This document shows positions 3,456 to 51,555 of a DNA stretch of 64,000 bases, in pieces. The notes below the pieces were generated by a model. The model was given only the letters and a program-made list of their open reading frames with translations. It had not been told where the DNA came from and did not search any database. A program made the position numbers and the translations under genes. The first letter of the stretch is position 1. Every line of letters begins with the position of its first letter. Source of the DNA: Candidatus Xenobia bacterium (GTDB lineage: Bacteria; Vulcanimicrobiota; Xenobia; Xenobiales; QWHO01); the NCBI GenBank assembly GCA_045863235.1, contig BTUM01000019.1:18691-82690 (forward strand), written 5' to 3'.

Positions 3456-4312
3456 CGCGGGCCCCGGAATCGAGTGCAGGTCACGCGCCCCAGACCGGCC
3501 AGTCGGGCGGCCACGGCCGCTCCCCCGGAGGTGAGCAGGCCAAAGAGGCAGGAACCGCTGCCCGAGAGCAGCACTCCCTGGCAGCCGGCTTCAAGCATCG
3601 ACTGGCGCAGCTCGGCCAGCCGAGGTTCGAGACGGGTTGCTGGAGGCTCGAGATCGTTGGCCAGGCCGGCCACCAGAGCGGCCAGGTCTCGCTGCTCCAA
3701 CGCCCTGACCACCCGCTCGGCGGCTCCCGGGGCGACCCGGACGGGCTGCTCGTCCCAGGCGCGATAAACTGGTCCGGTGGCCAGAGCGAAGGGCGGCTGC
3801 AGGACCACCACTTCGCAGGCAGGAGGAGCGGGCACCGCCTGCAGCAGGTCCCCCCGGCCCTGACCGCGGGCAGCTCCGCCCCGAATGCCAAAGGCCACGT
3901 CCGCCCCCAGCTCGGCCCCGATGCGCTCGAGCTCAGCGGGGGAATGGCCCAGGGAGAGCAGTTCGTTGGCTCCCACCAGGACGGCAGCAGCATCGGCGCT
4001 TCCACCTCCCAGGCCGGCGCCTGCCGGGATGCGCTTGATCAGGCGCACACTCAGCTCGACCCCCAGTCGATTCAGGGCTCGAACGGCCAGATTCTCCTCG
4101 GGGGGGCCCAGCGAGAGGCCGCCCTCCACCTCGTTGACAACCTCGAGACCCGAGCCAGAGGACAGTTCAACCTCGTCGTACCAATCCAGCCAGGCGAACA
4201 CGGTATCCAACCTGTGATAGCCACCCGGTAACAAACCGAGCACCTCCAGGGCCAGGTTCACCTTGGCCGGCGCCTCGACGGTCAACACGGCCAGGCTACT
4301 CGCCCTCTTCAT
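3452..4312 (-). CDS. ispE: 4-diphosphocytidyl-2-C-methyl-D-erythritol kinase
   Basis: APAKVNLALEVLG N-terminal motif and the GHMP kinase loop PAGAGLGGGSADAAAVL. Start taken at the internal Met (MKRASSL), not the ORF's first M at 4342. Confidence 0.85.
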   Translation of the reverse strand: MKRASSLAVLTVEAPAKVNLALEVLGLLPGGYHRLDTVFAWLDWYDEVELSSGSGLEVVNEVEGGLSLGPPEENLAVRALNRLGVELSVRLIKRIPAGAGLGGGSADAAAVLVGANELLSLGHSPAELERIGAELGADVAFGIRGGAARGQGRGDLLQAVPAPPACEVVVLQPPFALATGPVYRAWDEQPVRVAPGAAERVVRALEQRDLAALVAGLANDLEPPATRLEPRLAELRQSMLEAGCQGVLLSGSGSCLFGLLTSGGAAVAARLAGLGRVTCTRFRGPR

Positions 4313-6275
4313 CCTCGGACTTCGGAGAGGGGGTGATCTCATAGACCAGCGGTGTGTTGGCGACCTGAGAGACTTCGCGGGCCACCGCCAGCACCTGGGC
4401 GTAGTCTTGCACGGGGATCCATGGCTTTTTCACCACCAGCCGACTGTAAAACCAGGCTTCCCGACCCTCCTGGCGCGAGGTGAGCAGGAACGAGACATAG
4501 TCATTGTCCACCTGCACCGAGCCCGGCATGGACAGGATCTTGCTTCCCTCGGGCAACATCAGGTGCACCTGGCTGTCATCGCGGAAGGGATGGTCGAACT
4601 GCAGCGGATGCTCGCGGTCAGCCGGACTGTTCGCCAGAGAGGCGATGCGCTGATCGAGTTGGATGGGGATGCTCACCTGGCGTTTGTTGCCCTCGACCGC
4701 TACGTAATCCGGCACGATCAGCGTCATTCCCAGCGGAAAGCCCGGCCCGGCCGGCTCCTTGTCCGGGAAGTAACGCTCGTGAACCTGGGCCAGAGGGGAA
4801 TAGCTCTGGGCGATGGCTGCGAAGAGCGAGCGCAGAATGGTATCCCGCCGACCCCGGTCGGAGCTCGCCAGGGCGCGCACGGCTTCCCGCAGGAAGGTGG
4901 CCGACTCCCCATACTGCTGCTTGGAGATGGCCAGCTCGGCGCTGCCCTGCTCGTCCACTCTGGCCTCGATCTTCGTCTCGTCGCGATTCACGTCGAAGGC
5001 ATCAACGCTGGCATCGGCCAGACGAGGGCCCTCGGGACCCAGAAAGAGGGCCGCCCGCCCCTGGAAGCCGCCCGGAGGCCCCGAAATCAGCTGACCCGGG
5101 TGGGCCGGGTCGAACCAGAAGGGCTTGCCGCCAACATCGGGCAGATAGAGCAGCACGCGACCCACAGAAGTCGGCTGAGGGAGCAATCGGGCCACCTCTT
5201 CGGTTGGCTCGGTAAAGGCCAGCACAGGCTGGGTTCGGAACCCGGCGAACTCGAGCATGGCCGAGACCAGGATCGAGGTGTCCATGTAAGACAGGACCGG
5301 CTCGTCGATCAAATCACTGACCTTGTTGGGCAGGAACTGCTCGTAAGACAGGTCGACCTGCTTCTTGGAGGCCACGACCCAGTCGAGAATGGCCTGAACC
5401 CGAGCCGTGGGCGTGGCGGCAGTGGGGAGCAAACCCGAGGTGATCATCCCCAGTCGGGGTCCACCCGCCGAGTTCTCCCGCCAACTGGAATAAAACCAAT
5501 CGCCCAGCTCGTTCCAGGATTTGAAGCTGGACAAGTCCACCCGCCTGAGCAAGGATTCCGCCTCGGGCATGGCCGGCTCGGTGCGCAGAGCGGCCTGATC
5601 GCTCACCTGCCAGCGCAACACCTGGCTTTGATCGGCCACGGAGCGGGCCGGCCGCGAGGGCACCAGGCCCGGGGCGGCCCAGTGCACGTCGGTCCCCAGC
5701 GGGCTCTTCACGGTGAAAATCGAGACCAGCAGCGGCTCGGGGTTCTGAACATAGGAGGTGGCCCACCAGGCGTTGCGATAGTGGGGCTTGCGGGTTGTCG
5801 TCAGCTTGTATTCCAACACCGACCCGGGCGCCAGCTTGGGGAACTCGAACTCGAAACGGCGATAATCGCCGTAAACTTTGGATTTAGGCAGCAGAGGTGC
5901 GTCCACCACCGAATCGGGCTCGAGATCGTGCACCACCTGGTCGGGCCCGATGACCCGGGCCTCGTGCAAGGTGACCTCGCCATATCCCTGGCGGTAGACT
6001 CGGACCAGCGTCTGATGCGGCTCAATCCCCTCGCTGGTAAGAATCTTCACGATGTCATATTCGCTGTAGGCCGTGGAAGCGTCGCTCTTGAGCTCGAATC
6101 CGATATCATCGTAGAGAATGATGGCCGCCGCGTCGGGGAACTGCTGAGGGCCCGGAGAATTGACGAAGCGGCTGTCCTTGCGAAGCAGCGTACGCCCGGG
6201 CTGGCCCTGAACCGAGCCGCAAAGACCAACCGAAAAGAGCAGTGCCCCCACTAACCAGACTCGTCCTCTAAGCAT
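4296..6275 (-). CDS. Secreted DUF3857 + transglutaminase-like domain protein
   Basis: 659 aa. Signal peptide MLRGRVWLVGALLFSVGLCGSVQG. N-terminal DUF3857-like region, a transglutaminase-like core and a C-terminal acidic tail. Confidence 0.6.
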   Translation of the reverse strand: MLRGRVWLVGALLFSVGLCGSVQGQPGRTLLRKDSRFVNSPGPQQFPDAAAIILYDDIGFELKSDASTAYSEYDIVKILTSEGIEPHQTLVRVYRQGYGEVTLHEARVIGPDQVVHDLEPDSVVDAPLLPKSKVYGDYRRFEFEFPKLAPGSVLEYKLTTTRKPHYRNAWWATSYVQNPEPLLVSIFTVKSPLGTDVHWAAPGLVPSRPARSVADQSQVLRWQVSDQAALRTEPAMPEAESLLRRVDLSSFKSWNELGDWFYSSWRENSAGGPRLGMITSGLLPTAATPTARVQAILDWVVASKKQVDLSYEQFLPNKVSDLIDEPVLSYMDTSILVSAMLEFAGFRTQPVLAFTEPTEEVARLLPQPTSVGRVLLYLPDVGGKPFWFDPAHPGQLISGPPGGFQGRAALFLGPEGPRLADASVDAFDVNRDETKIEARVDEQGSAELAISKQQYGESATFLREAVRALASSDRGRRDTILRSLFAAIAQSYSPLAQVHERYFPDKEPAGPGFPLGMTLIVPDYVAVEGNKRQVSIPIQLDQRIASLANSPADREHPLQFDHPFRDDSQVHLMLPEGSKILSMPGSVQVDNDYVSFLLTSRQEGREAWFYSRLVVKKPWIPVQDYAQVLAVAREVSQVANTPLVYEITPSPKSEDEEGE

Positions 6276-6319: not shown

Positions 6320-7279
6320 TCAGCCGGGGCCCGCGTAATGACAGGCGACCTGATGTCCGCTGGCCTTCTCCACCAGGGCCGGAATCTCTTCTTTACAGAC
6401 CGCGCTGGCCAGCGGGCACCGCCCGACGTAGGGGCACCCGCGACCGGAGCTGCTCCCGGTCAGCAGTTGCATCGGCTCCCCCGAACGCCGGCCGGGGTCG
6501 GGGAGCGGCGCAGCCGCCATCAAGGCCCGGGTGTAGGGATGGAGAGGGGCCGTGCAGACCGCCTCGGCAGGGCCCTGCTCGACCAGCCGCCCGCGATAGA
6601 GGACGGCTACGCGCTGGCTCACCATGCGCACGACGGCCAGATCGTGGGCGATGAACAGCATGGAGAGACGACGCTCCTCCTTGAGGTCAAGCAGCAGGTT
6701 GAGCACCTGGGCCTGCACCGAAACGTCCAGGGCCGAGACTGGCTCGTCGGCCACGATCAACTCGGGCTCCACGGCCAGGGCCCGGGCGATCCCGATGCGC
6801 TGGCGCTGTCCTCCCGAGAACTGATGGGGGTAGCGCTGAGCGTGCTCAGGCCGCAGGCCGACTCGCTCGAGCAGCGCCCGAACCCGGTCGGGAATCTCGG
6901 CCCGCGGAGCCAGTCCGTGCAGCAAGAAGGGCTCGGCCAGAATGGTCTGAATCGAATGGCGGGGATTCAAGCTGCTGAAGGGGTCCTGGAAGATGAACTG
7001 GGCCTTGCGACGGAAGGAGAGCAGGTCGCGCCGGGCCAACAGGTCTTCGCCCTGAAAGTAGAGCTCGCCCGAGGTCGGCTCCAACAGTCGCAGAGCCATC
7101 CGGGCCGTGGTGCTCTTGCCCGATCCCGACTCGCCCACCAGGGCCAGCGTCTCGCCCGGCTCGACCACGAAGCTCACTTGATCGACAGCCCGAACCGGTG
7201 AGCCCCCCCCTCCGAACATCCCGCCCCCGGAGGCAAATGTTCGGGTAAGCCCACGTGCTTCCATCAAGGGACCGCTCAT
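6320..7279 (-). CDS. Oligopeptide/dipeptide-type ABC transporter ATP-binding protein (OppF/DppF-like)
   Basis: Walker [10 protein letters not shown], signature LSGGQRQR, Walker B LIVADEP, and a C-terminal oligopeptide/Cys-containing tail GCPYVGRCP. ATGA start/stop overlap with the upstream ATPase gene. Confidence 0.85.
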   Translation of the reverse strand: MSGPLMEARGLTRTFASGGGMFGGGGSPVRAVDQVSFVVEPGETLALVGESGSGKSTTARMALRLLEPTSGELYFQGEDLLARRDLLSFRRKAQFIFQDPFSSLNPRHSIQTILAEPFLLHGLAPRAEIPDRVRALLERVGLRPEHAQRYPHQFSGGQRQRIGIARALAVEPELIVADEPVSALDVSVQAQVLNLLLDLKEERRLSMLFIAHDLAVVRMVSQRVAVLYRGRLVEQGPAEAVCTAPLHPYTRALMAAAPLPDPGRRSGEPMQLLTGSSSGRGCPYVGRCPLASAVCKEEIPALVEKASGHQVACHYAGPG

Positions 7280-8253
7280 GCCACCTGGTCCGCGAAGAAG
7301 CAAGCGCTGAAATGGCCTGCCTCCAACTCGGCCAGGGCCGGCCGTTGGCTATGGCAGCGGTCTTGAGCCATGGAACAGCGGGGAGCGAAGGGACAGCCGG
7401 CGGGCAGAGCGCGCAGGTCGGGAGGCTGGCCCGGAATGGTTGGCAGACGGCCGGGAGCGCGGTCGAGACGAGGGACAGACGCGATCAGGCCAGCCGTGTA
7501 GGGGTGCCGGGGCTGGCTGAAGAGACGGCCCGTGGCAGCACGCTCGACAACCTGGCCGGCATACATGACGGCCGTCTCGTCCGACTCCTGGGCCACCACT
7601 CCCATGTCGTGAGTGATCAGCAGCACGGCCGAGTCCGACTGACGTCGGATTTCGCGCAACAGGGCCAGAATCTGAGCCTGAATGGTGACGTCCAGGGCCG
7701 TCGTCGGCTCGTCCGCGATCAACACCGCCGGGTCGCAGGCCAGCGCCATGGCGATCACGACCCGTTGCCGCATTCCACCCGAGAACTGGTGAGGATAGTC
7801 GTCCACCCGGAGGGCCGGCTCGGGAATCTGGACCCTGGCCAGCAGCTCGATGGCAGCCTGGCGCAGAGCGGTGCCGCGCAGACCCCGATGCACCGCGAGT
7901 GGCTCGGCCACCTGACGCCCCACCGTCAGCACCGGGTTGAGGGCCGTCAGGGGGTCCTGGAAGATCATCCCCAACCGGTTGCCACGCAGCCGGCGCAACT
8001 CCGACGGGGGGAGCTCGCGAAGATTGCGGCCCTCGAACTCGATGACGCCATCCTCCACCTTCCCGGGGGGAGCGATCAGCCCGAGGATAGACATCGCGCA
8101 AACACTCTTGCCCGATCCCGACTCGCCCACCACCGCTAGCGTTCGACCGGGATAGAGCTCAAAACTGACTCCGTCGACCGCGGTCAGCATCCCCTGCTCG
8201 GTAGCAAACCGCGTGGTCAGGCCCCGCAGGGCCAGCACTGGAGTCTGGCTCAC
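7276..8253 (-). CDS. Oligopeptide/dipeptide-type ABC transporter ATP-binding protein (OppD/DppD-like)
   Basis: Walker A GESGSGKS, signature FSGGMRQR, Walker [13 protein letters not shown]-terminal CPFAPRC. Start set at GTG 8251-8253 ([12 protein letters not shown]), preceded by AGGAGGG. The longer 432-aa ORF N-terminus overlaps the Zn-ribbon gene and is rejected. Confidence 0.8.
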
Positions 8254-8588
8254 TTCCCTCCTGTGACGCTCTTGATGATCTTGTTGACCGGCTTCTTGAC
8301 CGAGTCGGGCACGTGGGGCCAGGCGAAGTAGCCGCCCACCAGCAAGAGGATCAAGATCACCGTCTTGATCAGGGCCGCTCGCTGGCGCTCGGCTGCCAGG
8401 GCCGCCTCGTCGGCCCGCAGCTTGGCCATCTTCTCGGCCGAGGTAATGCTGTTCTGATGGCACTGATCGCTGCAGAACTTCCCCTCGGGCGTGGTGTAGG
8501 TGCACTCCTCGCAGATCGGCTTGAGGCACGATTTGCACTTGGTATCGGTCGGCCGCTCCTGGTGCTTGAGACAATGTGATTGTGCCAT
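8250..8588 (-). CDS. Zinc-ribbon (B-box / zf-HC2-like) single-pass membrane protein
   Basis: 112 aa. Cys/His cluster HCLKH..CKSCLKPICEEC...CSDQCH, then a coiled-coil stretch, then a TM helix ILILLLVGGYFAW and a short tail. TGA stop overlaps the GTG start of the downstream ATPase. Confidence 0.6.
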   Translation of the reverse strand: MAQSHCLKHQERPTDTKCKSCLKPICEECTYTTPEGKFCSDQCHQNSITSAEKMAKLRADEAALAAERQRAALIKTVILILLLVGGYFAWPHVPDSVKKPVNKIIKSVTGGK

Positions 8589-8591
8589 GCT

Positions 8592-10523
8592 TTACTCCAC
8601 CATCGTGATCGAAGTCGCGCCGGGGCCCAACGGGATCCGGCGGTCCACCGTCTCGCGGGTGGCGCTGACGACGACCACCTCGCCCTGCTCGGTAACGGCC
8701 CAGATCTCGTCTCCCTGCAGGGTGGCGGCCGTCAGCTTGCCCCCTACGGTGACCGCTTTTGACAGGCTCAGCTCGACCGGGGAGAGGGGACCGAGAGTGC
8801 CGCTCTCGTTGACCACCCAGATCTTCTGGCCGTCAGGAGGAACGAGAATGGCGAACGGGCGCGTTCCACCCGTGTCGCGGCCCGTCCTGAGCGCCTCGGC
8901 GCAATTTGGCAGGCGGTAGCTCTGAACGTGACCATCCACGGGCAGAGCCACCAGCAGATTGGACTTGTTGGCCGAGAGCGCCAGCGCTCCGGCACCGGCC
9001 AGGGGAACCTTGAGCAATTCCTTGACCACCGGATAAGGCTCCACGCAGACCAGCTCGTTCCCCGTGAGGCTGGAGAGGTAGAGCTTCCGGCCGCTGAGGT
9101 CCGTGCCGCCCTCGAGAGAAGGAGAGGCACCCGGATCGGGCACGGGAGCATCCAGAGCCATCCCCTGGGCGTCCCTGCCCAGGGCCACCAGGCCAACCAT
9201 GGCGTCCTTGCGCTTGAGCGGGCCGTCCTTTTGCTCGGGCAGAGCTTTAGGATCGAGCGAGACGATGGACACCTGGCCCATCTCGGAGTTCAACAGATAG
9301 AGCAGTTGGCCCGAGGGGTCCATGAGCAAGCGCCGGCAACCCGGGTCGATCTTCAATTCGCCCACGATGCGGTTGCTGCGCGTGTTGATCAGCTTGAGGA
9401 AGCCATTCTCTGTGGAGGCAAAGAGCTTCTTCCCGTCCGGGCTGGAGACCACGGCAAGAAACTTGTCCTGCTCGAGAGGGATACGGGTCAAGACGGTCTT
9501 GTCGGCCCGATTGACCACATAAATGGCGTTACCGCAAGCCACGTAGGCGGCAGCTCCTTGCCTGGCAAGGATGGGGGGGTTGAGCAACTGGTTGGAATAC
9601 CATAGCAAGGCGAGCAGGCCCACCACTTCCAGGGCCACCAGGTAGACCGGCTGCTTGAGAAAGGCCCACAATAGATTCTGCCAGGCGCGCGTATAGCTGT
9701 AGCTCCAGCGGGCGAAACGGGCCAGACCAAAGTTGATTCTGCGGACCTCCACCTTCTCTTGCACGGGAGGGTGGAGCACGTCGTTAAGGTTCTTTTTGAG
9801 CTCTTCGAAGGAGAAATAGAGCCCCTTGTCCTCGGCCGACAGACAACGGTTGATGACCTTGGCGAGCTCGGGGCTGACCGGGTCGGACTGCGAGCAACCA
9901 AAGGGACCGGGCTCCTTGCGGGCCAGAAAGAAAAACACTGTCTCCCCGAACTTGCGGATGTCACTTGCGATGACCGAGGCCTGAGCGGAGAACTCGGGCG
10001 CGTCCTCGTCGCCCAGGAAGCGGTCGAGACCGTAGTTGATCAGCTTGAGCTTGCCTTCCGAGTCGACCATGATGTTGGACGGATCGAGGGCGTCGAAGAT
10101 GAACGGTTTGGGGCGATTGTGCAGGTAGTGCAGCGCGTCGCACAGAGCGATGCCCCACTCGAGCACCTGGGGCTCGGGCTGGCCCTTCACGCTCATCTCG
10201 AGCAGGGTCTTCATGGTGATGCCATCGACCCGCTCGAGCACCACATACTGACGGCGCCCTTCGGAGAAATGGTCGAACATCTTGGTCAGGCCTGGATGAT
10301 CGAACTCGCGCAACACCTCCATGGCCTCTTGCAGCTGCCGGGTGCGCTCGGTCACCTGCTCCTCGCTCAAGGAGGGGTGCGGGATCATCTCTTTGAGAGC
10401 GAATTTCTGATCGTCGGAGGTGCGCTTGGCCACATAGACGCCCCCCTTCTCGCCGAAGGTAAGGGTCTTGACGACCACGTAGCGGCCTTCCGCGAGCTCC
10501 TGGCCAGGGAGTAGCTCTTTCAT
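8592..10523 (-). CDS. Ser/Thr protein kinase-like pseudokinase fused to TM segment and C-terminal beta-propeller
   Basis: 643 aa. Kinase fold with Gly loop and FALKE lysine. Catalytic loop reads FDALDPSNIMV where HRDLKPxN is expected. The DFG motif is replaced by NYG. A TM segment (LVALEVVGLLALLWY) is followed by YVTN/PQQ-like propeller repeats. Confidence 0.75.
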   Translation of the reverse strand: MKELLPGQELAEGRYVVVKTLTFGEKGGVYVAKRTSDDQKFALKEMIPHPSLSEEQVTERTRQLQEAMEVLREFDHPGLTKMFDHFSEGRRQYVVLERVDGITMKTLLEMSVKGQPEPQVLEWGIALCDALHYLHNRPKPFIFDALDPSNIMVDSEGKLKLINYGLDRFLGDEDAPEFSAQASVIASDIRKFGETVFFFLARKEPGPFGCSQSDPVSPELAKVINRCLSAEDKGLYFSFEELKKNLNDVLHPPVQEKVEVRRINFGLARFARWSYSYTRAWQNLLWAFLKQPVYLVALEVVGLLALLWYSNQLLNPPILARQGAAAYVACGNAIYVVNRADKTVLTRIPLEQDKFLAVVSSPDGKKLFASTENGFLKLINTRSNRIVGELKIDPGCRRLLMDPSGQLLYLLNSEMGQVSIVSLDPKALPEQKDGPLKRKDAMVGLVALGRDAQGMALDAPVPDPGASPSLEGGTDLSGRKLYLSSLTGNELVCVEPYPVVKELLKVPLAGAGALALSANKSNLLVALPVDGHVQSYRLPNCAEALRTGRDTGGTRPFAILVPPDGQKIWVVNESGTLGPLSPVELSLSKAVTVGGKLTAATLQGDEIWAVTEQGEVVVVSATRETVDRRIPLGPGATSITMVE

Positions 10524-10656
10524 ACCAGGGGAATGTTCTCAATCTCTCATGCCGGATCCTGCCCGTCAAAATGGCTTAAAAACTCGCATAACGGCCCCAG
10601 CTCTTGAATCGGGCTCAAAGCGGGAAACTCCGCCGAGGGTCCGAACTCCGCCCGCC

Positions 10657-11589
10657 ATGGCGAGCTTTCTGCTCAAGGAGCTGGCCCGGCGGGTGGAGGG
10701 GTCCGTGCTGGGCGATGGCGAGTTGACCATCACCTCGGTGAGCGGCCTGGAGGGCGTGCAGCCGGGCGGGCTGACTTTCATCGAGGAAGCCGGCCGGCTC
10801 GCGGAGGCCGAAACCAGCGGAGCGGTCGCCGTCATCGCCCCTCCGGATGTAGAGTCGAGCCACCTCGCCGTGCTGCGCACACCCCGACCGCGCGTCGCAT
10901 TCGCGCGCCTGTTGGCGCTCTTTCACCCCCGCCCGCCGGTGCACCCGCTCATCCATCCAACCGCCTTCATCCACCCGCAGGCGCGGGTGGCCGCCACCGC
11001 CCACATCGGTCCCTTCTGCTCAGTAGGAGCCGGGTCGGAGGTGGGCGAGGGTGTCGAACTGGTGGCCCGTGTCACCCTGGAAGAGGAAGTCATCCTGGAG
11101 AGGGGGGTCTGGCTGCAAGCCGGGGTGGTCGTCAAGCGGGGCGCGCGGCTTGGCCCGGAATGCTCTCTGTTACCCCACTCGGTGGTGGGTCCGAGGAGCG
11201 TTCTGGGCCCCCGAGTCGAGACGGGCGCTCGGGTCGTCATTGGAGCCGAGGTCAGCATCGGAGAAGGCAGCAAGCTGGATAACCTGGTCCTGGTAGGAGC
11301 TGGCTCGAAGTTGGGCCGCCACGTGCTGATGGTGGGACACAGTATGGTGCTGACCGGCTGCGAACTGGGCGACTACAGTGTCGTGGCCGCCCAGTCGGTG
11401 GTTCTGCCGGGCGTGAAGCTGGGGGCCCAGGTGCAACTCGCGGCTCGCTCCTTTGCCGATCAAGACCTTCCCAAAGCGGGCACCTACTCGGGCGACCCGG
11501 CCCAACCTCATCGTCAGGAGATGGTCTTCAAGGCCCTTCAGGGGAAGGCTGCCGAGCTCTGGCAGGGCTTAAAAAGGGTCCGCAGGTAA
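10657..11589 (+). CDS. lpxD: UDP-3-O-acylglucosamine N-acyltransferase
   Basis: Left-handed beta-helix hexapeptide repeats with the LpxD N-terminal domain (LKELARRVEGSVLGDGELTITSVSGLE..). Start taken at MASFLLKE. Confidence 0.8.
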   Translation: MASFLLKELARRVEGSVLGDGELTITSVSGLEGVQPGGLTFIEEAGRLAEAETSGAVAVIAPPDVESSHLAVLRTPRPRVAFARLLALFHPRPPVHPLIHPTAFIHPQARVAATAHIGPFCSVGAGSEVGEGVELVARVTLEEEVILERGVWLQAGVVVKRGARLGPECSLLPHSVVGPRSVLGPRVETGARVVIGAEVSIGEGSKLDNLVLVGAGSKLGRHVLMVGHSMVLTGCELGDYSVVAAQSVVLPGVKLGAQVQLAARSFADQDLPKAGTYSGDPAQPHRQEMVFKALQGKAAELWQGLKRVRR

Positions 11590-12313
11590 GGGCCAGCAGG
11601 ATCCAACCCAGAATCCCCGAGAGCGGATCGCCTGACAGGCCCCAGAACCAGGAGCTGTCCAACCGTCCCGGCGGGTCGACGATCTGGATGAAAACCCAGG
11701 TGGTGTGGACCCCGATGGCCATCCAGAGTGAGCCGGTTCGTTCGACCAGAAGAGCCAGGAAGATTCCGGCCAGCACCAGAGACACTCCGAAGGCCAGTTT
11801 CCACTCGGTTGTTCCAGGGCGAAACAGATGGAGAACCGCAAAGAAGAGGTTCACGCCCAGATAGGCGGCCGGTCGCCCCCACTCCTCGCGGGCCACCTGG
11901 AACAGGTAGCCGCGGAACACGACCTCCTCGGCGATGGCCATGAGCGGTGCCGCGATCAGCGCCGCCAGAAGGGGGGGATCGGGGGGCGGGGTCCAGCGAC
12001 CGAAGAGGGTTAAGATCAACCGCGAACCAACGATCATCCCCGTGCCCAGCAAGATTCCGGTGGTGAACAGGCGCACCCAGCCCGGGCGCATTGCCAGGCT
12101 GGCCGAGCCCGGCCGCGGACCCCAGCGCCGCCAGCTGTAGGAGGTGCTGAAGAGCAGCCAACAGTAAAGGGCGATCAGATAGCCGTCTTTCCAGGCGCGT
12201 GGCCCGTGGCGACTGAGCAAAATGGTGGGCTCGCCCAGAATCAGTCCCGGGATGAGCCAGGCCGCCACCCAGCCAACGGCCAGCAGACCCAGGAAAGCGC
12301 CGATCCGTTTCAA
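11528..12313 (-). CDS. CPBP (CAAX) family intramembrane metalloprotease
   Basis: Multiple TM helices, the EEVVFRGYLF motif and a downstream FxxxH motif. Its 3' end overlaps lpxD convergently. Confidence 0.75.
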   Translation of the reverse strand: MKRIGAFLGLLAVGWVAAWLIPGLILGEPTILLSRHGPRAWKDGYLIALYCWLLFSTSYSWRRWGPRPGSASLAMRPGWVRLFTTGILLGTGMIVGSRLILTLFGRWTPPPDPPLLAALIAAPLMAIAEEVVFRGYLFQVAREEWGRPAAYLGVNLFFAVLHLFRPGTTEWKLAFGVSLVLAGIFLALLVERTGSLWMAIGVHTTWVFIQIVDPPGRLDSSWFWGLSGDPLSGILGWILLALTCGPFLSPARARQPSPEGP

Positions 12314-13467
12314 GGAGGTGGTTGGCCGTGGGCCAGCGATTCTATCCAGGCCGCCATCCGGGCCGCGCCCCCCGGCGGACCCATGCGCTCACGTCCCACC
12401 GCGCCGCGCCGGTGACGCTCCTCAGGGTCGCGCAGCAGCCTGGACAGAGCGGCGACGATGACTTCGGGACGGTCCTCCACCACCTCCACAGCCTCCCCCA
12501 AGAGGCCCTTCTGGCGGAAACGATACCAGCTCATCCTCTTCTCGCCGCCGGGCCCGTAGGCAAGTACCGGCAACCCCTTGCCGGCGGCCTGCTCGTTTGC
12601 CGTTCCGGCCTGGCCCAGCACGAGCTGGCAGTGAGCCAGCACATCTCCCAGGACTCGCCGCACCAATAGCACGGAGGGCAGACCCTCCCGGCACAGCTCG
12701 CCCACCATGCCACGCTCGGTCGGAGAAGCATTCAGCTGCCACCCGGGGGGAACCAGCCGCTCCAATTGAAGACTATCAGCCACGACCACCACGGCCCGCG
12801 CCCGGTCGCCCCCCTGCCAGAGGAGCCCGTAGACGTCGAGCATCCGGGCCAGTTCGGCGTACGCCTCCACCCGGCTGCCCGGGAAGAGAGCTATCCAGGG
12901 CAAGTTGCCGTTGAGGGGCAGATCGATGCCGGTGGGCTCAAGAGCGTCCATCATCGGGTTTCCCACCCAGGCCGCTCGAATGCCCGCTCGACGCAGGTCG
13001 GCCGCGGTCGGCTCGTCGCGGGTCAGCACCCGATCGGCCAGTTGCCGCATAGCCAGTCGCTCGAACCAGGAGTAACGATGGTGGACGACCGACTTGGCGG
13101 TGCCGATGAAGAGGAGTGGTCGCAACCCTGCAAAGGCGTTGAGCAGGGCAAAGACATCTCCCACCACCACGAAGAGCTGGTACTGGCGCCGCACCTGGCG
13201 CAAGAAGCGAAACTGGCGCAAAAGCAGGGTGAGCAGACCACTGCGGAGATCGCGGGTGATGTGACTGAGCGGAGAATCGTTGACCAGCCCCCCGCTGGGC
13301 ATCGGAGCCTGGCGCGGTCCAACCAGCGGTAGCACGCCCTGATAAGCGGCTCCCTGACCCACCGTGGGCATGGCCTCAGCCTCGACCCGATTCAGACGCG
13401 ATCCGATCAAGCTGGCGATCGCATCCTCGCCGGCGCCGTTGGAGATGAACAGCACCCGGGGGCGCAT
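12310..13467 (-). CDS. Lipid-A-disaccharide synthase-related glycosyltransferase (LpxB-like paralog)
   Basis: 385 aa GT-B-like protein with an N-terminal VLFISNGAGEDAIA motif resembling the LpxB-related family. Distinct from the canonical lpxB at 16639-17802. Confidence 0.55.
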   Translation of the reverse strand: MRPRVLFISNGAGEDAIASLIGSRLNRVEAEAMPTVGQGAAYQGVLPLVGPRQAPMPSGGLVNDSPLSHITRDLRSGLLTLLLRQFRFLRQVRRQYQLFVVVGDVFALLNAFAGLRPLLFIGTAKSVVHHRYSWFERLAMRQLADRVLTRDEPTAADLRRAGIRAAWVGNPMMDALEPTGIDLPLNGNLPWIALFPGSRVEAYAELARMLDVYGLLWQGGDRARAVVVVADSLQLERLVPPGWQLNASPTERGMVGELCREGLPSVLLVRRVLGDVLAHCQLVLGQAGTANEQAAGKGLPVLAYGPGGEKRMSWYRFRQKGLLGEAVEVVEDRPEVIVAALSRLLRDPEERHRRGAVGRERMGPPGGAARMAAWIESLAHGQPPP

Positions 13468-47912: not shown

Positions 47913-49049
47913 TTGATCCCCGAGCGCGTCCCTCATCCGGTCGATCGAATGAAGATCCTGGCCAGGATGATCCACATCACCTCGCATCTGAGCGACCTGG
48001 AATCCCTGCAGGAAATCCTGATGGACCACTTGCTGGAGCTGGTGGGAGCAGAGCGGGGCTTCCTGATGCTGGTCGACCCCGAAAGCGGCGCGCTGGAATT
48101 CTGCACGGCTCGCAACTTCTCTAAGGAAAGCCTGTTCGAGTCTGAGTTTCAGGTAAGCCGTAGCATCATTTTCGAGACCTTCCGCAGCCGAGAGGCCGTG
48201 CTGACCTCCAATGCCCAGGATGATGAGCGTTTCCAGAGCGCGATCAGTGTCCAGGAGCTCGGCTTGCGGGCGGTCATGTGCGTACCGGTGGTCGTGCAAG
48301 ACGAGGCCATCGGAGTGCTCTACGTCGACAACCGCTTGCGGCTGGGAGCCTTCGAGACAGAGGACCTCGAATTCATGAAGACCTTTGCCGATCAAGCCGG
48401 GGCCAGCATCCACCGAACCCGCCTGACCCGGGAACGAAACCGACTGGCCCAGCTGTTCAGTCGCTATGTCAGCCCCGAGGTGGTTGGCGAGTTACTGGCC
48501 CGCCCGCACGACGCGCTCAGCGCCCAGCGGCGCCGGGTCACGGTGATGTTCGTGGATCTGCGCGGCTTCTCGGCCCTCTCCGAGCAGCTTCCCCCGGCCG
48601 AGCTCCTGGACATGCTCAATGAATACTACGAGGGCATGCTCGAGGTACTGTTCGCTCACCGGGGCACCATTCTGTCCTTCCTGGGCGACGGCTTGCTGGC
48701 CGTCTTCGGGGCTCCGTTGGCCATGGAGCAACAGGAGTTGAGGGCCATTCAGTGCGCCAGGAATCTGATTCAATGGGGAGAAACCAGACAGGGGCTGAAG
48801 TTTGGGGTGGGTATGGCCACCGGCGAGGCGGTCGTAGGGGATCTGGGGGGCTCTCAGAGAAGAGACTACACGGTCGTGGGCGACCCGGTGAACACCGCCG
48901 CCCGACTCGAAAAACTCACCAAGAGCAAGGGGGTTGCGGTGCTGGTGGATGAGGAGACCTACCGCTCCAGCGGCCTGACGGGAGGAACCAACCTGGGGGC
49001 AGAGCTTCTGGCTGGCAAGTCCAATCCGGTCTCCCTCTGGGCCGTGTGA
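47913..49049 (+). CDS. GAF domain-containing class III adenylate/guanylate cyclase
   Basis: N-terminal GAF domain. CHD domain with RRVTVMFVDLRGFSAL..GDGLLAVFGAP... Starts 3 nt after the secF stop. Confidence 0.8.
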   Translation: MIPERVPHPVDRMKILARMIHITSHLSDLESLQEILMDHLLELVGAERGFLMLVDPESGALEFCTARNFSKESLFESEFQVSRSIIFETFRSREAVLTSNAQDDERFQSAISVQELGLRAVMCVPVVVQDEAIGVLYVDNRLRLGAFETEDLEFMKTFADQAGASIHRTRLTRERNRLAQLFSRYVSPEVVGELLARPHDALSAQRRRVTVMFVDLRGFSALSEQLPPAELLDMLNEYYEGMLEVLFAHRGTILSFLGDGLLAVFGAPLAMEQQELRAIQCARNLIQWGETRQGLKFGVGMATGEAVVGDLGGSQRRDYTVVGDPVNTAARLEKLTKSKGVAVLVDEETYRSSGLTGGTNLGAELLAGKSNPVSLWAV

Positions 49050-50338
49050 AACGCGGCCTGGTCGTGCTGGCTTTGACCGCTCTGCAGGCCTGTGGCCCTC
49101 CTCCCCCGGACCCGGCCCTGCACATGGCTCCCGACACCCCTCTGAGCGAATCGGCCTACGTCGCCTCCGATCGGGGCGGCCAGCTCTGGTTCCGACTCTA
49201 CCGGCGAGGTGACCCCTCGGACGAGCCCTTTCGCCCCAGCGGCGTGAGCGCCCCTGGCCGCATCCGAATTCCAGAAGGACACCTGGTAGATCTGGAGGTG
49301 CGCGGTCGCATCGGTCCCTTCCAGCTGTTCCGCGCCACCCAGGGCCGCGTCCAACCAGAGTCACACGTTTCCCTGGTCAGTGTGGTGGAGCTCGATTGGA
49401 ATCGCATCCTGGCCCTGGGACTGGTCAGCCTGGCCGGCCTCTCGGGAGCGCTCTGGCTGATCCTCGCCAGCCGCCTGCGCCACCGGGAGAATCAGGCACT
49501 GGAGCTCGAGGTCGAGCGCAACCAGGCTGAAGAACGGGCTCGGCGGGCCGAGTCGCGCACCGGTGGTGATCCCATTCGGCTGGGGCCGTACCGCATCCTG
49601 GAACGGCTCGGCCAGGGCGGGCACGCGGTGGTCTACCTGGTCGAAGACGAGTATGGCGACCGCTTCGCACTGAAAATTCCCAGCCAGCCCTCCCAGCGCT
49701 TCCAGCGAGAATGCGAAATCTTGCGGGAGCTGCGCCACCCGGGCATTGTGCGCTTGCACAGCTTCTCGGTCGCAAGCCAGGACGAACCGGCCTACATGGT
49801 GCTCGAACCGGTCGAAGGGGAGAGCCTGCTCGAGCGACTCGAGCGGCCCATGGCCCCTGAGGAAGCGGTGCGCATCGCGCGCGAGCTGCTGCAGGCGCTC
49901 GAATATGCTCATCAGGCCGGGGTCGTTCATCGCGACGTCTCGGCCGGCAACGTGCTCTTGACCGCTCAGGGAGTGCGCCTGCTCGACTTCGGGCTGGCCC
50001 GCCAGGATCTGCAGGTCACCCTGACGGCCCCCGACCAGACCCTGGGAACCCCTGCCTACGCCGCCCCGGAGCAGATCGACAGCCACACCGTCGACGCCCG
50101 GGCCGACCTTTTTGCGGTGGGCGTGTTGCTCTATCAGATGCTGACCGGGCGGCTACCCTGGCAAGAGCGCGACGCCGTCAAGCTGTTCCTGGCCAAGAGC
50201 AGCACGCCGCCGCCTCCTCCCAACCAGCTCAACCCGATGATTTCACGGTCGTTGAGCGAGCTCGTCATGGACCTGTTGCGGGCTGACCCCGCGGATCGAC
50301 CCGAATCGGCCGGGGCCGTGCTGAGGCGGCTGAGCTGA
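49046..50338 (+). CDS. Membrane Ser/Thr protein kinase with N-terminal extracytoplasmic domain
   Basis: Signal-like N-terminus, an extracytoplasmic region of about 100 aa, and a TM helix. Cytoplasmic Hanks kinase with FALKIP, HRDVSAGN, DFGLAR and APE motifs. 4-nt overlap with the cyclase gene. Confidence 0.8.
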   Translation: MKRGLVVLALTALQACGPPPPDPALHMAPDTPLSESAYVASDRGGQLWFRLYRRGDPSDEPFRPSGVSAPGRIRIPEGHLVDLEVRGRIGPFQLFRATQGRVQPESHVSLVSVVELDWNRILALGLVSLAGLSGALWLILASRLRHRENQALELEVERNQAEERARRAESRTGGDPIRLGPYRILERLGQGGHAVVYLVEDEYGDRFALKIPSQPSQRFQRECEILRELRHPGIVRLHSFSVASQDEPAYMVLEPVEGESLLERLERPMAPEEAVRIARELLQALEYAHQAGVVHRDVSAGNVLLTAQGVRLLDFGLARQDLQVTLTAPDQTLGTPAYAAPEQIDSHTVDARADLFAVGVLLYQMLTGRLPWQERDAVKLFLAKSSTPPPPPNQLNPMISRSLSELVMDLLRADPADRPESAGAVLRRLS

Positions 50339-51555
50339 TGGCAACTTTCCGCTACCGGGCTTCGGGCGCAGGGGGAGCGTTGAAGGAGGGGGTGCTGGAG
50401 GCAACCAGCAAACAGGATGCTTCCCGCTCCCTGCTGCAACGGGGCCTGATGGTCCTCGAGCTGAAAGAGGAGCGTGCTGCCGCTCCTCGCCAGCTGGTGG
50501 CCCCACCGGTCCCCCGGGCGATCGTCGCCCCGCCCCCTCGACTGACCCGGCTCTCGGCCATGGAAGCCGCGGTGCTGTTTCGCCAGCTGGCGGTCATGTT
50601 CCAGGCCGGCCTCTCGCTCTTTCGGGCAGTCACCTGCCTGGCCCAGCAGGCTGAGCGGCCCCGCCGGCGCCAGGCACTGGAGCTGCTGGCCGCCCGCCTG
50701 GCCGAGGGCTCCTCGCTGAGCCAGGCCATGGAGCTCTCCGGGCTCTTTTCGCAACTTGAGATCGGGGTGATGAAGGCGGGGGAGGAGTCGGGTATGCTCA
50801 GCGTCCTGCTCGAGCGACTGGCCCGGCTTCAAGAGCTGGAGTTGGCCTTTCAGCAACAGGTGAAGGCCCGCCTCAGCTACCCGGTTGGCGTGGCCGCAGC
50901 CATGGTGGTGGCCGCCTCGCTACTGACCATCTTGATGGGCCGAGTCGTCGCCTCCATGGGGAGCCTGGCCGAGGCCAGCCCCTTTCTGAGGTTGATCCAA
51001 CAACCCTGGCTGCCGGCCCTCATGCTGCTCGTCCCGCTAGCTCTGGGCTGGTTGGCCTGGTGGGGTTGGAGGGGCTCCTCCACCCGGGCCAGCATGGAGC
51101 GCGTCTTGCTGAGGTTTGCCGTGGTCGGGCCCCTGCTGCGCCGGGCCGAGTCAGCCCGCATCTGCCGTATTCTGGCCGTGCTGGCTTCCAGCGGACTGCG
51201 GGTGGATCGCAGTCTGAGCCTGGCCGCCGGCACGACCGGGAGCCCCCTGGCACGCGAGGCCCTCGAGGTCGCTCGCCGCCATCTGGTGGCGGGTGAAGGG
51301 CTGGCCGCCGCTCTGGCGGCAAGCGGCTATTTTCCGCGCGAGGTGATCCAGATGACCGCGGCCGGCGAGAGTTCCGGGCGGCTGGGGCCGATGCTCTCCA
51401 AAGTGGCCGAATATGCCGACCTTCAGGTTACCCAGTTCCTGGAGGCTGCGGTTACGGCCCTGGAGCCGCTGCTACTGAGCGTGCTCGGCTTTCTGGTCGG
51501 ACTTACCATGCTGGCCATCTTCGGGCCCCTTTACGGAGCTCTGGGCAGACTTTGA
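50338..51555 (+). CDS. Type II secretion system F (GspF/PilC/TadB-like) platform family membrane protein
   Basis: Two T2SS-F repeats (..AVLFRQLAVMFQAGLSL.. and ..CRILAVLASSGLRV..) with flanking TM helices. TGATG stop/start overlap with the kinase gene. Confidence 0.75.
   Translation: MATFRYRASGAGGALKEGVLEATSKQDASRSLLQRGLMVLELKEERAAAPRQLVAPPVPRAIVAPPPRLTRLSAMEAAVLFRQLAVMFQAGLSLFRAVTCLAQQAERPRRRQALELLAARLAEGSSLSQAMELSGLFSQLEIGVMKAGEESGMLSVLLERLARLQELELAFQQQVKARLSYPVGVAAAMVVAASLLTILMGRVVASMGSLAEASPFLRLIQQPWLPALMLLVPLALGWLAWWGWRGSSTRASMERVLLRFAVVGPLLRRAESARICRILAVLASSGLRVDRSLSLAAGTTGSPLAREALEVARRHLVAGEGLAAALAASGYFPREVIQMTAAGESSGRLGPMLSKVAEYADLQVTQFLEAAVTALEPLLLSVLGFLVGLTMLAIFGPLYGALGRL

Follow-up and report, generated by a model that had tools for sequence, protein, structure and literature searches.

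Background

Bacterial pseudokinases have been catalogued only recently, from RefSeq and UniProt, and experimental work has been limited to a handful (EssB/YukC, MviN and enzymes of the SidJ/SelO type). Seven families have been named (ActPs1-3, GLW, DLHK, DYD and CP1), and the lysine of the VAIK motif is substituted in all seven (2025 Atlas, 10.1101/2025.01.12.632604, and the 2025 review of bacterial serine/threonine kinases, STKs); according to the review, pseudokinases make up as much as 67% of some bacterial kinomes. The subject of the present study is a gene on the minus strand (8592..10523) of a 64,000-nt stretch of contig BTUM01000019.1 (assembly GCA_045863235.1), hereafter the window, from Candidatus Xenobia, a class of Vulcanimicrobiota (= Eremiobacterota). 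The gene had previously been predicted to encode a membrane pseudokinase fused to a periplasmic beta-propeller, and our analysis indicates that its product is probably a bitopic inner-membrane receptor-like pseudokinase, i.e., a non-catalytic transmembrane receptor or scaffold. The original prediction regarded bacterial pseudokinase receptors as rare and poorly described; the second statement holds as far as experiments are concerned, while the first does not agree with the seven families and their share of some kinomes.

PQQ_2 (PF13360) is a beta-propeller repeat. A C-terminal domain of the PQQ type follows the Hanks-fold pseudokinase of ActPs1 (O'Boyle et al. 2025, PMC12599244; Atlas, 10.1101/2025.01.12.632604), through which a dead kinase joined to a propeller is already on record as a general architecture and is not unprecedented. 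In this actinobacterial family all three triad residues, including the VAIK lysine, are replaced, and ~60% of the members lack the G-helix. MviN (Rv3910, ActPs3; PDB 3UQC) carries a membrane-tethered pseudokinase domain with a shortened activation loop, possesses an extracytoplasmic domain and serves as a non-catalytic regulatory scaffold; its pseudokinase domain is appended to a flippase with 14 transmembrane (TM) segments, has no beta3 lysine (VALT) and has an ATP pocket filled by F724 and W789. EssB/YukC of the type VIIb secretion system (T7SSb) of Firmicutes is bitopic and has an N-terminal cytoplasmic pseudokinase domain whose activation loop is attenuated and whose Gly loop is degraded; it serves in scaffolding or dimerisation. 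All three of its motifs are degraded (LDMR / YTFVLAPD / TRG), a propeller is lacking and the gene resides in T7SSb loci. The order kinase - TM - propeller, with the same topology as predicted here, is found in receptor kinases of the PknD type, and the sensor of PknD is a six-bladed NHL propeller. In eukaryotes, STRADalpha, MLKL, HER3 and plant BIR2 have kept the beta3 lysine, have lost the acidic residues of HRD and/or DFG and act as allosteric switches or scaffolds.

Results

Kinase-like domain and its lost catalytic residues

The coding sequence (643 aa, ATG start, TAA stop) specifies a pseudokinase domain, a TM helix and a beta-propeller, and its product is identical to GenBank GMU53495.1, which is titled 'hypothetical protein AMXMBFR33_26410 [Candidatus Xenobia bacterium]' and labelled 'serine/threonine-protein kinase' by JGI. 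A word-indexed search of 5.8 billion proteins revealed 21 clusters of full-length orthologues (34-95% identity, 642-669 aa), so the open reading frame (ORF) is not a chance frame. The alignment of these clusters with the query (22 sequences) underlies the statements on family-wide conservation below. Past the orthologues there is a steep drop in score, from 396 to 106 bits, and the next matches are ordinary active kinases with WD40, PQQ or TolB propellers attached.

The kinase-like domain, which would be cytoplasmic, occupies residues 8-252 (9768..10502; this and all other parts of the gene are on the minus strand). Pfam Pkinase (PF00069) matches residues 15-174 with an E value of 4.8e-18 and 65.9 bits, above the gathering cutoff of 31.7, and Foldseek returned kinase matches with a probability of 1.00, which together place the domain in the Hanks superfamily. 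The Pfam alignment spans profile positions 1-152 of 263 only and ends just past the DFG position; by comparison, the canonical kinase encoded in the same window covers positions 1-254 of 263 with 159 bits. An AlphaFold2 (AF2) model was built from the family alignment and searched against PDB with Foldseek. Its mean predicted local distance difference test (pLDDT) score is 83.3, with values mostly of 80-90 in this domain, and the C-lobe helices are modelled. The matches include Stk1/PknB of Staphylococcus aureus (9ymt, 4eqm) and PknB, PknI and PknA of Mycobacterium tuberculosis, with TMt of 0.65-0.75, as well as the Rv3910/MviN pseudokinase 3uqc (rank 41, TMt 0.68). The domain is therefore kinase-like on structural comparison, as had been proposed.

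To place the motifs, we used two independent phmmer alignments, with yeast PKA (1fot) and Aurora B (5k3y), and both gave the same register, in which the query segment 'kpfifdaldpsnimvdsegklklinygl' stands opposite 'kdiiyrdlkpenilldkngHikitdfgf'. The H/Y-R-D motif corresponds to F143-D144-A145, with A145 at the position of the catalytic Asp; the catalytic-loop Lys is replaced by D147, the catalytic-loop Asn is retained in the query as N150, and DFG is represented by N163-Y-G (163-165). The substitutions of HRD by FDA, of Lys by Asp and of DFG by NYG, claimed at the outset, are thus confirmed by the hidden Markov model (HMM) and by two pairwise alignments in one register. The degenerate catalytic loop as a whole reads RPKPFIFDALDPSNIM (residues 137-152, 10068..10115), and the motif NYGLDRF stands in place of DFG at residues 163-169 (10017..10037).

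The beta3 strand FALKE (residues 41-45, 10389..10403) contains K44, the VAIK-like lysine that had been read as kept, and its partner, the alphaC glutamate E66, lies within 10314-10340; both residues of the pair are invariant in 22 of 22 sequences, and E45 is invariant as well. The Gly loop (GxGxxG), also described earlier as kept, is partly degenerate: only G27/G28 are invariant in the family, while the first Gly is T22 and G24 is variable. The adenine-pocket positions look canonical in the alignments (gatekeeper L/M96, hinge E97-x-V99, A/L42 and the invariant M152), and none of these aligned positions carries a bulky aromatic substitution.

The activation segment (residues 170-188, 9960..10016) is shortened: 25 residues separate N163 from D188 of alphaF, there is no APE or P+1 loop, and the AF2 confidence is low across residues 171-180. 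In every family member the distance from N163 to the alphaF acidic residue is 24-25 residues, compared with 40 in the canonical kinase of the window and a minimum of 36 from DFG to alphaF in 85 active comparator kinases (a regular-expression-based median of 55 for active kinases is probably inflated by late matches, and only the minimum of 36 and the value of 40 were relied on). Since a segment of 24-25 residues is opposed to at least 36, i.e., it is ~11-15 residues shorter than in active kinases, the P+1/APE substrate platform has been deleted. By the sequence definition, a pseudokinase lacks at least one of the VAIK-Lys, the HRD-Asp and the DFG-Asp, and here two of the three are absent. What is missing for catalytic competence comprises the HRD Asp, the DFG Asp, the catalytic-loop Lys/Asn pair and a full activation segment with P+1 and APE. 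The motifs therefore support the earlier prediction of a catalytically dead domain: the protein is very likely not a conventional kinase and, as judged from these motifs, would phosphorylate no target.

Conservation of the losses across the family

Is the loss of catalytic residues peculiar to the query or common to its family? At the catalytic-Asp position the query clade and P0015 have A and all other members have V; D is never found. The catalytic-loop Lys position is occupied by D, E or N. Asn of the catalytic loop is retained in the query clade and P0015, and His takes its place in the remaining 15 members. The DFG Asp position is N in 22 of 22 sequences, within the motif N-[YF]-G-[LI]-D-R-F, in which N163, G165, D167, R168 and F169 are invariant. 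A further new motif, RPxPFxF, contains the invariant R137, P138 and F143. Remoter genomic relatives, located by a pattern scan, display the same kinds of states: FDA and N[FY]G in L013 and L014 (32-42% identity), LHA and NYG in L015 (33%), and FDV and NYG in L016 (28%). One objection to the original prediction would have been a catalytic Asp or DFG Asp situated elsewhere; none was found, the positions being A/V and N in every member, and both acids are missing in the relatives of 28-33% identity too. On the available sequences, the loss of catalytic residues is a fixed property of the family.

Moreover, between distant orthologues and the query the kinase-like domain is 50-56% identical, compared with 31-38% for the propeller, and the proportion of invariant columns is 23% and 15.5% in the two kinase lobes versus 3.6% in the propeller. 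A catalytically dead domain that is better conserved than the propeller attached to it is therefore under purifying selection for a non-catalytic function and is not decaying.

Membrane topology and propeller

In the AF2 model, a bilobal domain (residues ~8-250) is connected by a disordered linker (255-277) to a juxtamembrane helix (277-290), which is succeeded by a long TM helix (293-314) and ~27 beta-strands at 325-642 with pLDDT of ~90. The juxtamembrane amphipathic helix YTRAWQNLLWAFLK (residues 277-290, 9654..9695), in which W281 and W286 are nearly invariant, is preceded by the linker, assigned in the feature annotation to residues 255-276. It is followed by the single TM helix QPVYLVALEVVGLLALLWYSNQLL (residues 291-314, 9582..9653) with the invariant Q291, P292 and intramembrane glutamate E299, an equivalent of which is also present in L013, L015 and L016. 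The protein contains one hydrophobic segment only, with a hydropathy maximum at 287-311; seven Lys/Arg residues before this segment and two after it indicate an N-in, C-out topology.

The extracytoplasmic part is modelled as a seven-bladed beta-propeller, apparently YVTN-like (residues 322-643, 8595..9560), with a low-confidence Pro/Ala/Ser-rich insert around residues 460-478. The C-terminal half of the protein matches 1l0q, the YVTN propeller of a Methanosarcina S-layer protein, with a phmmer E value of 5.6e-12 over three repeats, and the seven-bladed propellers found by Foldseek are 7bid (TMt 0.85), mLST8 (8era_C, TMt 0.79) and NirN. Among profile models, the YVTN repeat TIGR02276 scores 14.5 bits, below its cutoff of 27.85, NCBIfam gives partial matches to TIGR03866 and hydrazine-synthase-beta, and no Pfam match to PQQ_2 was detected in the propeller. 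The order of a TM helix and a propeller (YVTN/PQQ-like) that had been read from the sequence is thus reproduced by the hydrophobic segment, the 1l0q match and the Foldseek matches.

Comparison with described pseudokinases

By their published descriptions, none of the seven named families accommodates the query family, since here K44 is invariant and the HRD Asp and DFG Asp are lost instead. DLHK, for example, keeps the HRD Asp that is missing here. The named families also differ in range and in partner domains (Actinobacteria with PQQ_2; Proteobacteria; COG3899, helicase and others) from a family with a YVTN-like propeller in Xenobia, Eremiobacterota and UBP9. The family differs from ActPs1 in its invariant K44 and E66, its modelled C-lobe helices, a YVTN-like propeller without PQQ_2 and its Xenobia/Eremiobacterota hosts. 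Unlike MviN, the query is bitopic, keeps the Lys-Glu pair, shows no aromatic residues at the aligned pocket positions and has no FHA or PknB genes nearby; likewise, no T7SS genes of the kind that accompany EssB were found in the flanks. In their predicted function, MviN and EssB/YukC, both membrane-tethered scaffolds whose activation loops are shortened, are nonetheless the nearest analogues. The nearest active relatives, P0022-P0029 (32-40% identity over the kinase N-lobe to DFG), share with the query and PknD the kinase - TM - propeller layout and topology, but they possess canonical [FY]RD[LV]KPxN and DFG motifs and full-length activation segments, whereas the query combines a seven-bladed YVTN-like propeller with a predicted loss of catalysis. 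The eukaryotic pseudokinases with a similar pattern of losses belong to unrelated lineages and have different partners, and nucleotide binding by the query is only predicted. No published description of the family was found in the literature searched, outside which lies the tree-of-life survey of Kwon et al. 2019, and the term 'beta-propeller' occurs in neither the 2025 Atlas nor the review.

Wider set of relatives

When 1.84 billion cluster representatives (50% identity) were searched exhaustively with an HMM, 892 proteins scored at E<=1e-30, a number that also takes in long multi-propeller proteins. Among the best 150 profile matches there are dozens of proteins of 580-740 aa that combine a kinase-like domain with a TM helix and a propeller, and almost all of these lack the canonical triad when motif states are read via the family HMM. 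The N[YF]GLD signature is common to P0127, P0129-P0131, P0139, P0142, P0144, P0187 and P0195, in which the same catalytic losses hold. As far as these motif states can tell, the query family belongs, as one branch, to a broader collection of receptor-like pseudokinases without a name in the sources searched.

Two other layouts were encountered in the same search. A separate group of kinase-like and propeller proteins of 700-1175 aa, with 'FTLGD' for HRD and '[NSG]YDLQRF' for DFG (P0158, P0163, P0172, P0174, P0176, P0182, P0193, P0194, P0198, P0199, P0216 and P0222), appears to be another uncharacterised pseudokinase lineage. In P0232, P0240 and P0253 (~1000-1100 aa), an N-terminal pseudokinase-like domain (FRA..., no catalytic Asp) is combined with a C-terminal canonical kinase ([YF]RD...DFG), a tandem layout that recalls eukaryotic JAKs.

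Hosts of the genome matches are metagenome-assembled genomes (MAGs) of Eremiobacterota, Vulcanimicrobiota, UBP9 and Xenobia, together with MAGs labelled Armatimonadota and Bacillota. The family is conserved throughout Candidatus Xenobia and extends to more remote uncultured lineages. Four records of 'Burkholderiales bacterium' MAGs (L010, L011, L017 and P0269) contain genes 44-96% identical to this protein, which is specific to Xenobia/Eremiobacterota, with the same neighbours; such bins are probably mis-binned or taxonomically mislabelled.

Genomic context and a candidate partner gene

On the minus strand the pseudokinase gene is followed in the same direction by a 112-aa ORF, two ABC ATPase genes of the OppD/OppF type, a DUF3857 gene, a GHMP kinase gene and an NTP transferase gene, and an LpxD-like acyltransferase gene (10549-11589, plus strand) diverges from the pseudokinase gene. 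The 112-aa ORF (8250..8588, minus strand) begins 3 nt past the pseudokinase stop codon (GTGGAGTAAAGCATG), with GGAG 7 nt upstream of its start, and encodes a candidate co-transcribed partner composed of an N-terminal B-box-like zinc finger with seven conserved Cys and one conserved His, a helix, one TM segment and the motif AWPxxP. The Pfam zf-B_box match is sub-threshold (19.1 versus 24.1 bits), and the label 'B-box-like' therefore follows the conserved Cys/His pattern. A search of known structures for this zinc-finger protein gave only insignificant matches, to designed helical repeats and butyrophilin TM regions, and these were rejected. Its gene is located directly downstream of the pseudokinase gene, separated by 3 nt, in all loci of 43-96% identity (L001, L002, L004, L006-L012 and L017), for instance at ~9960-10312 in L001 and 10032-10415 in L004, and some gene calls (L001) cut off the N-terminal zinc finger. 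Among the same 5.8 billion proteins it has 24 homologue clusters, all of 112-136 aa, unnamed and without a Pfam domain, so its phyletic range is as narrow as that of the pseudokinase with 21.

The DUF3857-domain protein (659 aa, 4296..6275, minus strand), which has an N-terminal hydrophobic leader resembling a signal peptide, is a conserved downstream member: its gene follows in the same loci as the zinc-finger gene and in L013. The two ABC ATPase genes (about 7276-8244 and 6320-7303; 6320..8244 together, minus strand) lie between the zinc-finger and DUF3857 genes in the query clade only, with no permease or binding-protein gene adjacent. In L001, L002 and L008-L013 the slot between the zinc-finger and DUF3857 genes holds a membrane ORF of ~70 aa with the motif 'LLT[IV]LANKQGAT' (10409-10615 in L001, 8195-8413 in L013), which is absent from the query clade, where the ABC ATPases fill this slot. 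The remoter members L003, L015 and L016 have other neighbours.

No gene for an adjacent active kinase, PP2C phosphatase or FHA protein was found in the flanks. The only other kinase gene in the window, the canonical one at 49046-50338 (plus strand), is situated ~39 kb from the pseudokinase gene, so linkage gives no evidence of a partnership between the two; its start overlaps the stop of a GAF-adenylate/guanylate cyclase gene (47913-49049, plus strand), and a T2SSF (GspF/PilC-like) gene (50338-51555, plus strand) comes directly after it. A conserved 385-aa ORF (12310-13467, minus strand) lies between metallophosphoesterase and CPBP/Rce1-like protease genes, has an orthologue in L004 (5055-6215) and adjoins lipid-A genes (LpxD-like in the window, two copies of LpxB further upstream in L004). 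An LpxB-like identity guessed for this ORF by eye is unsupported, with zero Pfam matches. Long antisense ORFs on the plus strand (4263-6254, 113-2125, 8928-9605 and 9759-10514) run opposite the DUF3857 gene, EF-G and the pseudokinase gene; the 670-aa ORF opposite EF-G has zero Pfam matches, and all of them are the usual stop-poor frames of a genome with ~64% GC and not genes.

Discussion

How else could a conserved kinase-like domain of this kind be explained? It could be an atypical active Ser/Thr kinase in which D167 or D144 makes up for the lost residues, with N163 and N150/H150 serving as metal ligands, so that phosphotransfer is regained in a WNK-like manner. With K44, E66, G27 and G28 invariant and the hinge and adenine pocket canonical in the alignments, ATP binding would be plausible, and D167-R168-F169 is invariant in the 22-sequence family. 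However, D167 is Ser in L013, L014 and P0122 and G, N, H, T or Q in wider relatives, the D144 position is N, H, E or G in orthologues, and the catalytic Asp, the catalytic-loop Lys, the DFG Asp and, in most members, the catalytic-loop Asn have been lost jointly, along with the activation segment and P+1 platform and any Pfam coverage beyond DFG; we thus regard an active kinase as unlikely. Alternatively, the propeller may be the functional part, as a periplasmic binding or enzymatic module, and the kinase-like domain a decaying anchor inherited from an active receptor kinase. Descent from such an ancestor is likely, because the nearest non-family relatives, P0022-P0029, are active kinases fused to WD40, PQQ or TolB propellers. 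Decay is another matter: the kinase-like domain exceeds the propeller in identity, contains 4-6 times more invariant columns and holds specific new invariant motifs (RPxPFxF and N[YF]G[LI]DRF), which is the opposite of decay and makes the anchor explanation decidedly unlikely.

A kinase fold could also have been turned to a different reaction that depends on nucleotides, for example AMPylation as in SelO or glutamylation as in SidJ. Repurposing of this type is documented for bacterial kinase-fold proteins (2025 review of bacterial STKs), and the Lys-Glu pair and adenine pocket are kept here. SelO and SidJ, though, retain an acidic metal ligand at DFG (DYG/DFG, DLG), where Asn is invariant in the family; across the wider family, the active-site region lacks any universally conserved cluster of acidic or His/Asn residues; and among the best 60 of 1,183 PDB matches at E<=1 there was no similarity to SelO or SidJ, the kinase-domain matches there all being canonical kinases. 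Such a chemistry is accordingly very improbable. We give hardly any credence to a role in anti-phage defence as a kinase of the PD-T4-6 or MADS type. The PADLOC models mad6 (1.4e-28) and PD-T4-6 and the NCBIfam model MAD6 (8.8e-12) do match residues ~9-175, but these are generic matches from the kinase N-lobe to DFG (NF047741 reaches 44.3 bits, with its cutoff at 460), PADLOC defence models match neither of the operon partners, the flanks consist of envelope, transport and housekeeping-type genes without defence or mobile genes, and the chromosomal position is stable across the class. With generic, far sub-threshold matches and unmatched partner genes, a defence-system identity was rejected. 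A lanthionine synthetase (LanL/LanKC) was likewise rejected, the matches covering the kinase domain only, with 53-65 bits against cutoffs of 575-650.

Several observations weigh against a non-catalytic receptor with a dedicated partner. Kinases without canonical residues are sometimes active, WNK being one example and CASK another. Throughout the core family D167 of NYGLD does not vary, and D144 adjoins the catalytic position, so a relocated acidic residue is conceivable. The analysis turned up no ligand, no output and no active kinase that interacts with the protein. As for the partner, the zinc-finger gene is absent beside the remoter members L003, L013, L015 and L016, which limits the partnership to the core Xenobia clade, and L013, L015 and L016 keep the TM glutamate without this gene, so that the partner of the glutamate is not necessarily the zinc-finger protein. 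The conserved gene order, moreover, runs on into housekeeping-type genes (GHMP kinase, NTP transferase), and part of the synteny may reflect lineage inertia rather than a functional operon; only the abutting zinc-finger gene is therefore strong evidence for a functional pair.

Taking all this together, a receptor-like pseudokinase remains the reading that we favour. Its propeller would bind a ligand in the envelope or periplasm, for which the co-encoded DUF3857 protein is a possibility. Rearrangement of the TM and juxtamembrane helices upon ligand binding, or oligomerisation through the polar TM residue, could then reposition the pseudokinase domain, which would act as a conformational switch or a docking platform for cytoplasmic partners; the docked partner would most plausibly be the zinc-finger domain of the co-encoded protein. 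Nucleotide binding independent of cations might stabilise the pseudokinase domain as a structural switch and is plausible insofar as the residues of the adenine pocket, the hinge and the Lys-Glu pair appear canonical. As direct partner we consider the small B-box-like zinc-finger/TM protein, whose gene is apparently translationally coupled, the likeliest, although we hold the specific partners at lower confidence than the overall interpretation. By analogy, the functional logic resembles that of EssB/YukC, MviN or eukaryotic receptor pseudokinases more closely than that of PknB or PknD.

A broader interpretation is that a large unnamed superfamily of bitopic kinase-like/TM/propeller receptors exists in uncultured phyla and that in Xenobia it works together with a zinc-finger membrane partner of the B-box type that is dedicated to it, and perhaps with a periplasmic DUF3857 protein, as a phosphorylation-independent device for envelope signalling. 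We put this forward tentatively, as a doubtful but conceivable extension; if true, it would represent a signalling logic not yet described in bacteria.

Conclusions

The gene belongs to a conserved, lineage-restricted family of receptor-like pseudokinases that adds to the known bacterial pseudokinases and overturns no expectation. What distinguishes it is the pattern of degradation, the receptor-like architecture, a candidate dedicated partner gene and hosts without cultured, genetically tractable members. Database labels such as 'serine/threonine-protein kinase' and 'hypothetical protein' would inflate the predicted phospho-signalling capacity of these genomes. The finding is testable and of real value for specialists in pseudokinases and bacterial signalling. 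In this family they have a compact model in which to study how a signal from the periplasm is relayed by a dead kinase domain in the absence of phosphorylation. It also allows one to ask whether nucleotide binding, if retained, acts in bacteria as the structural switch that it is in eukaryotic pseudokinases.

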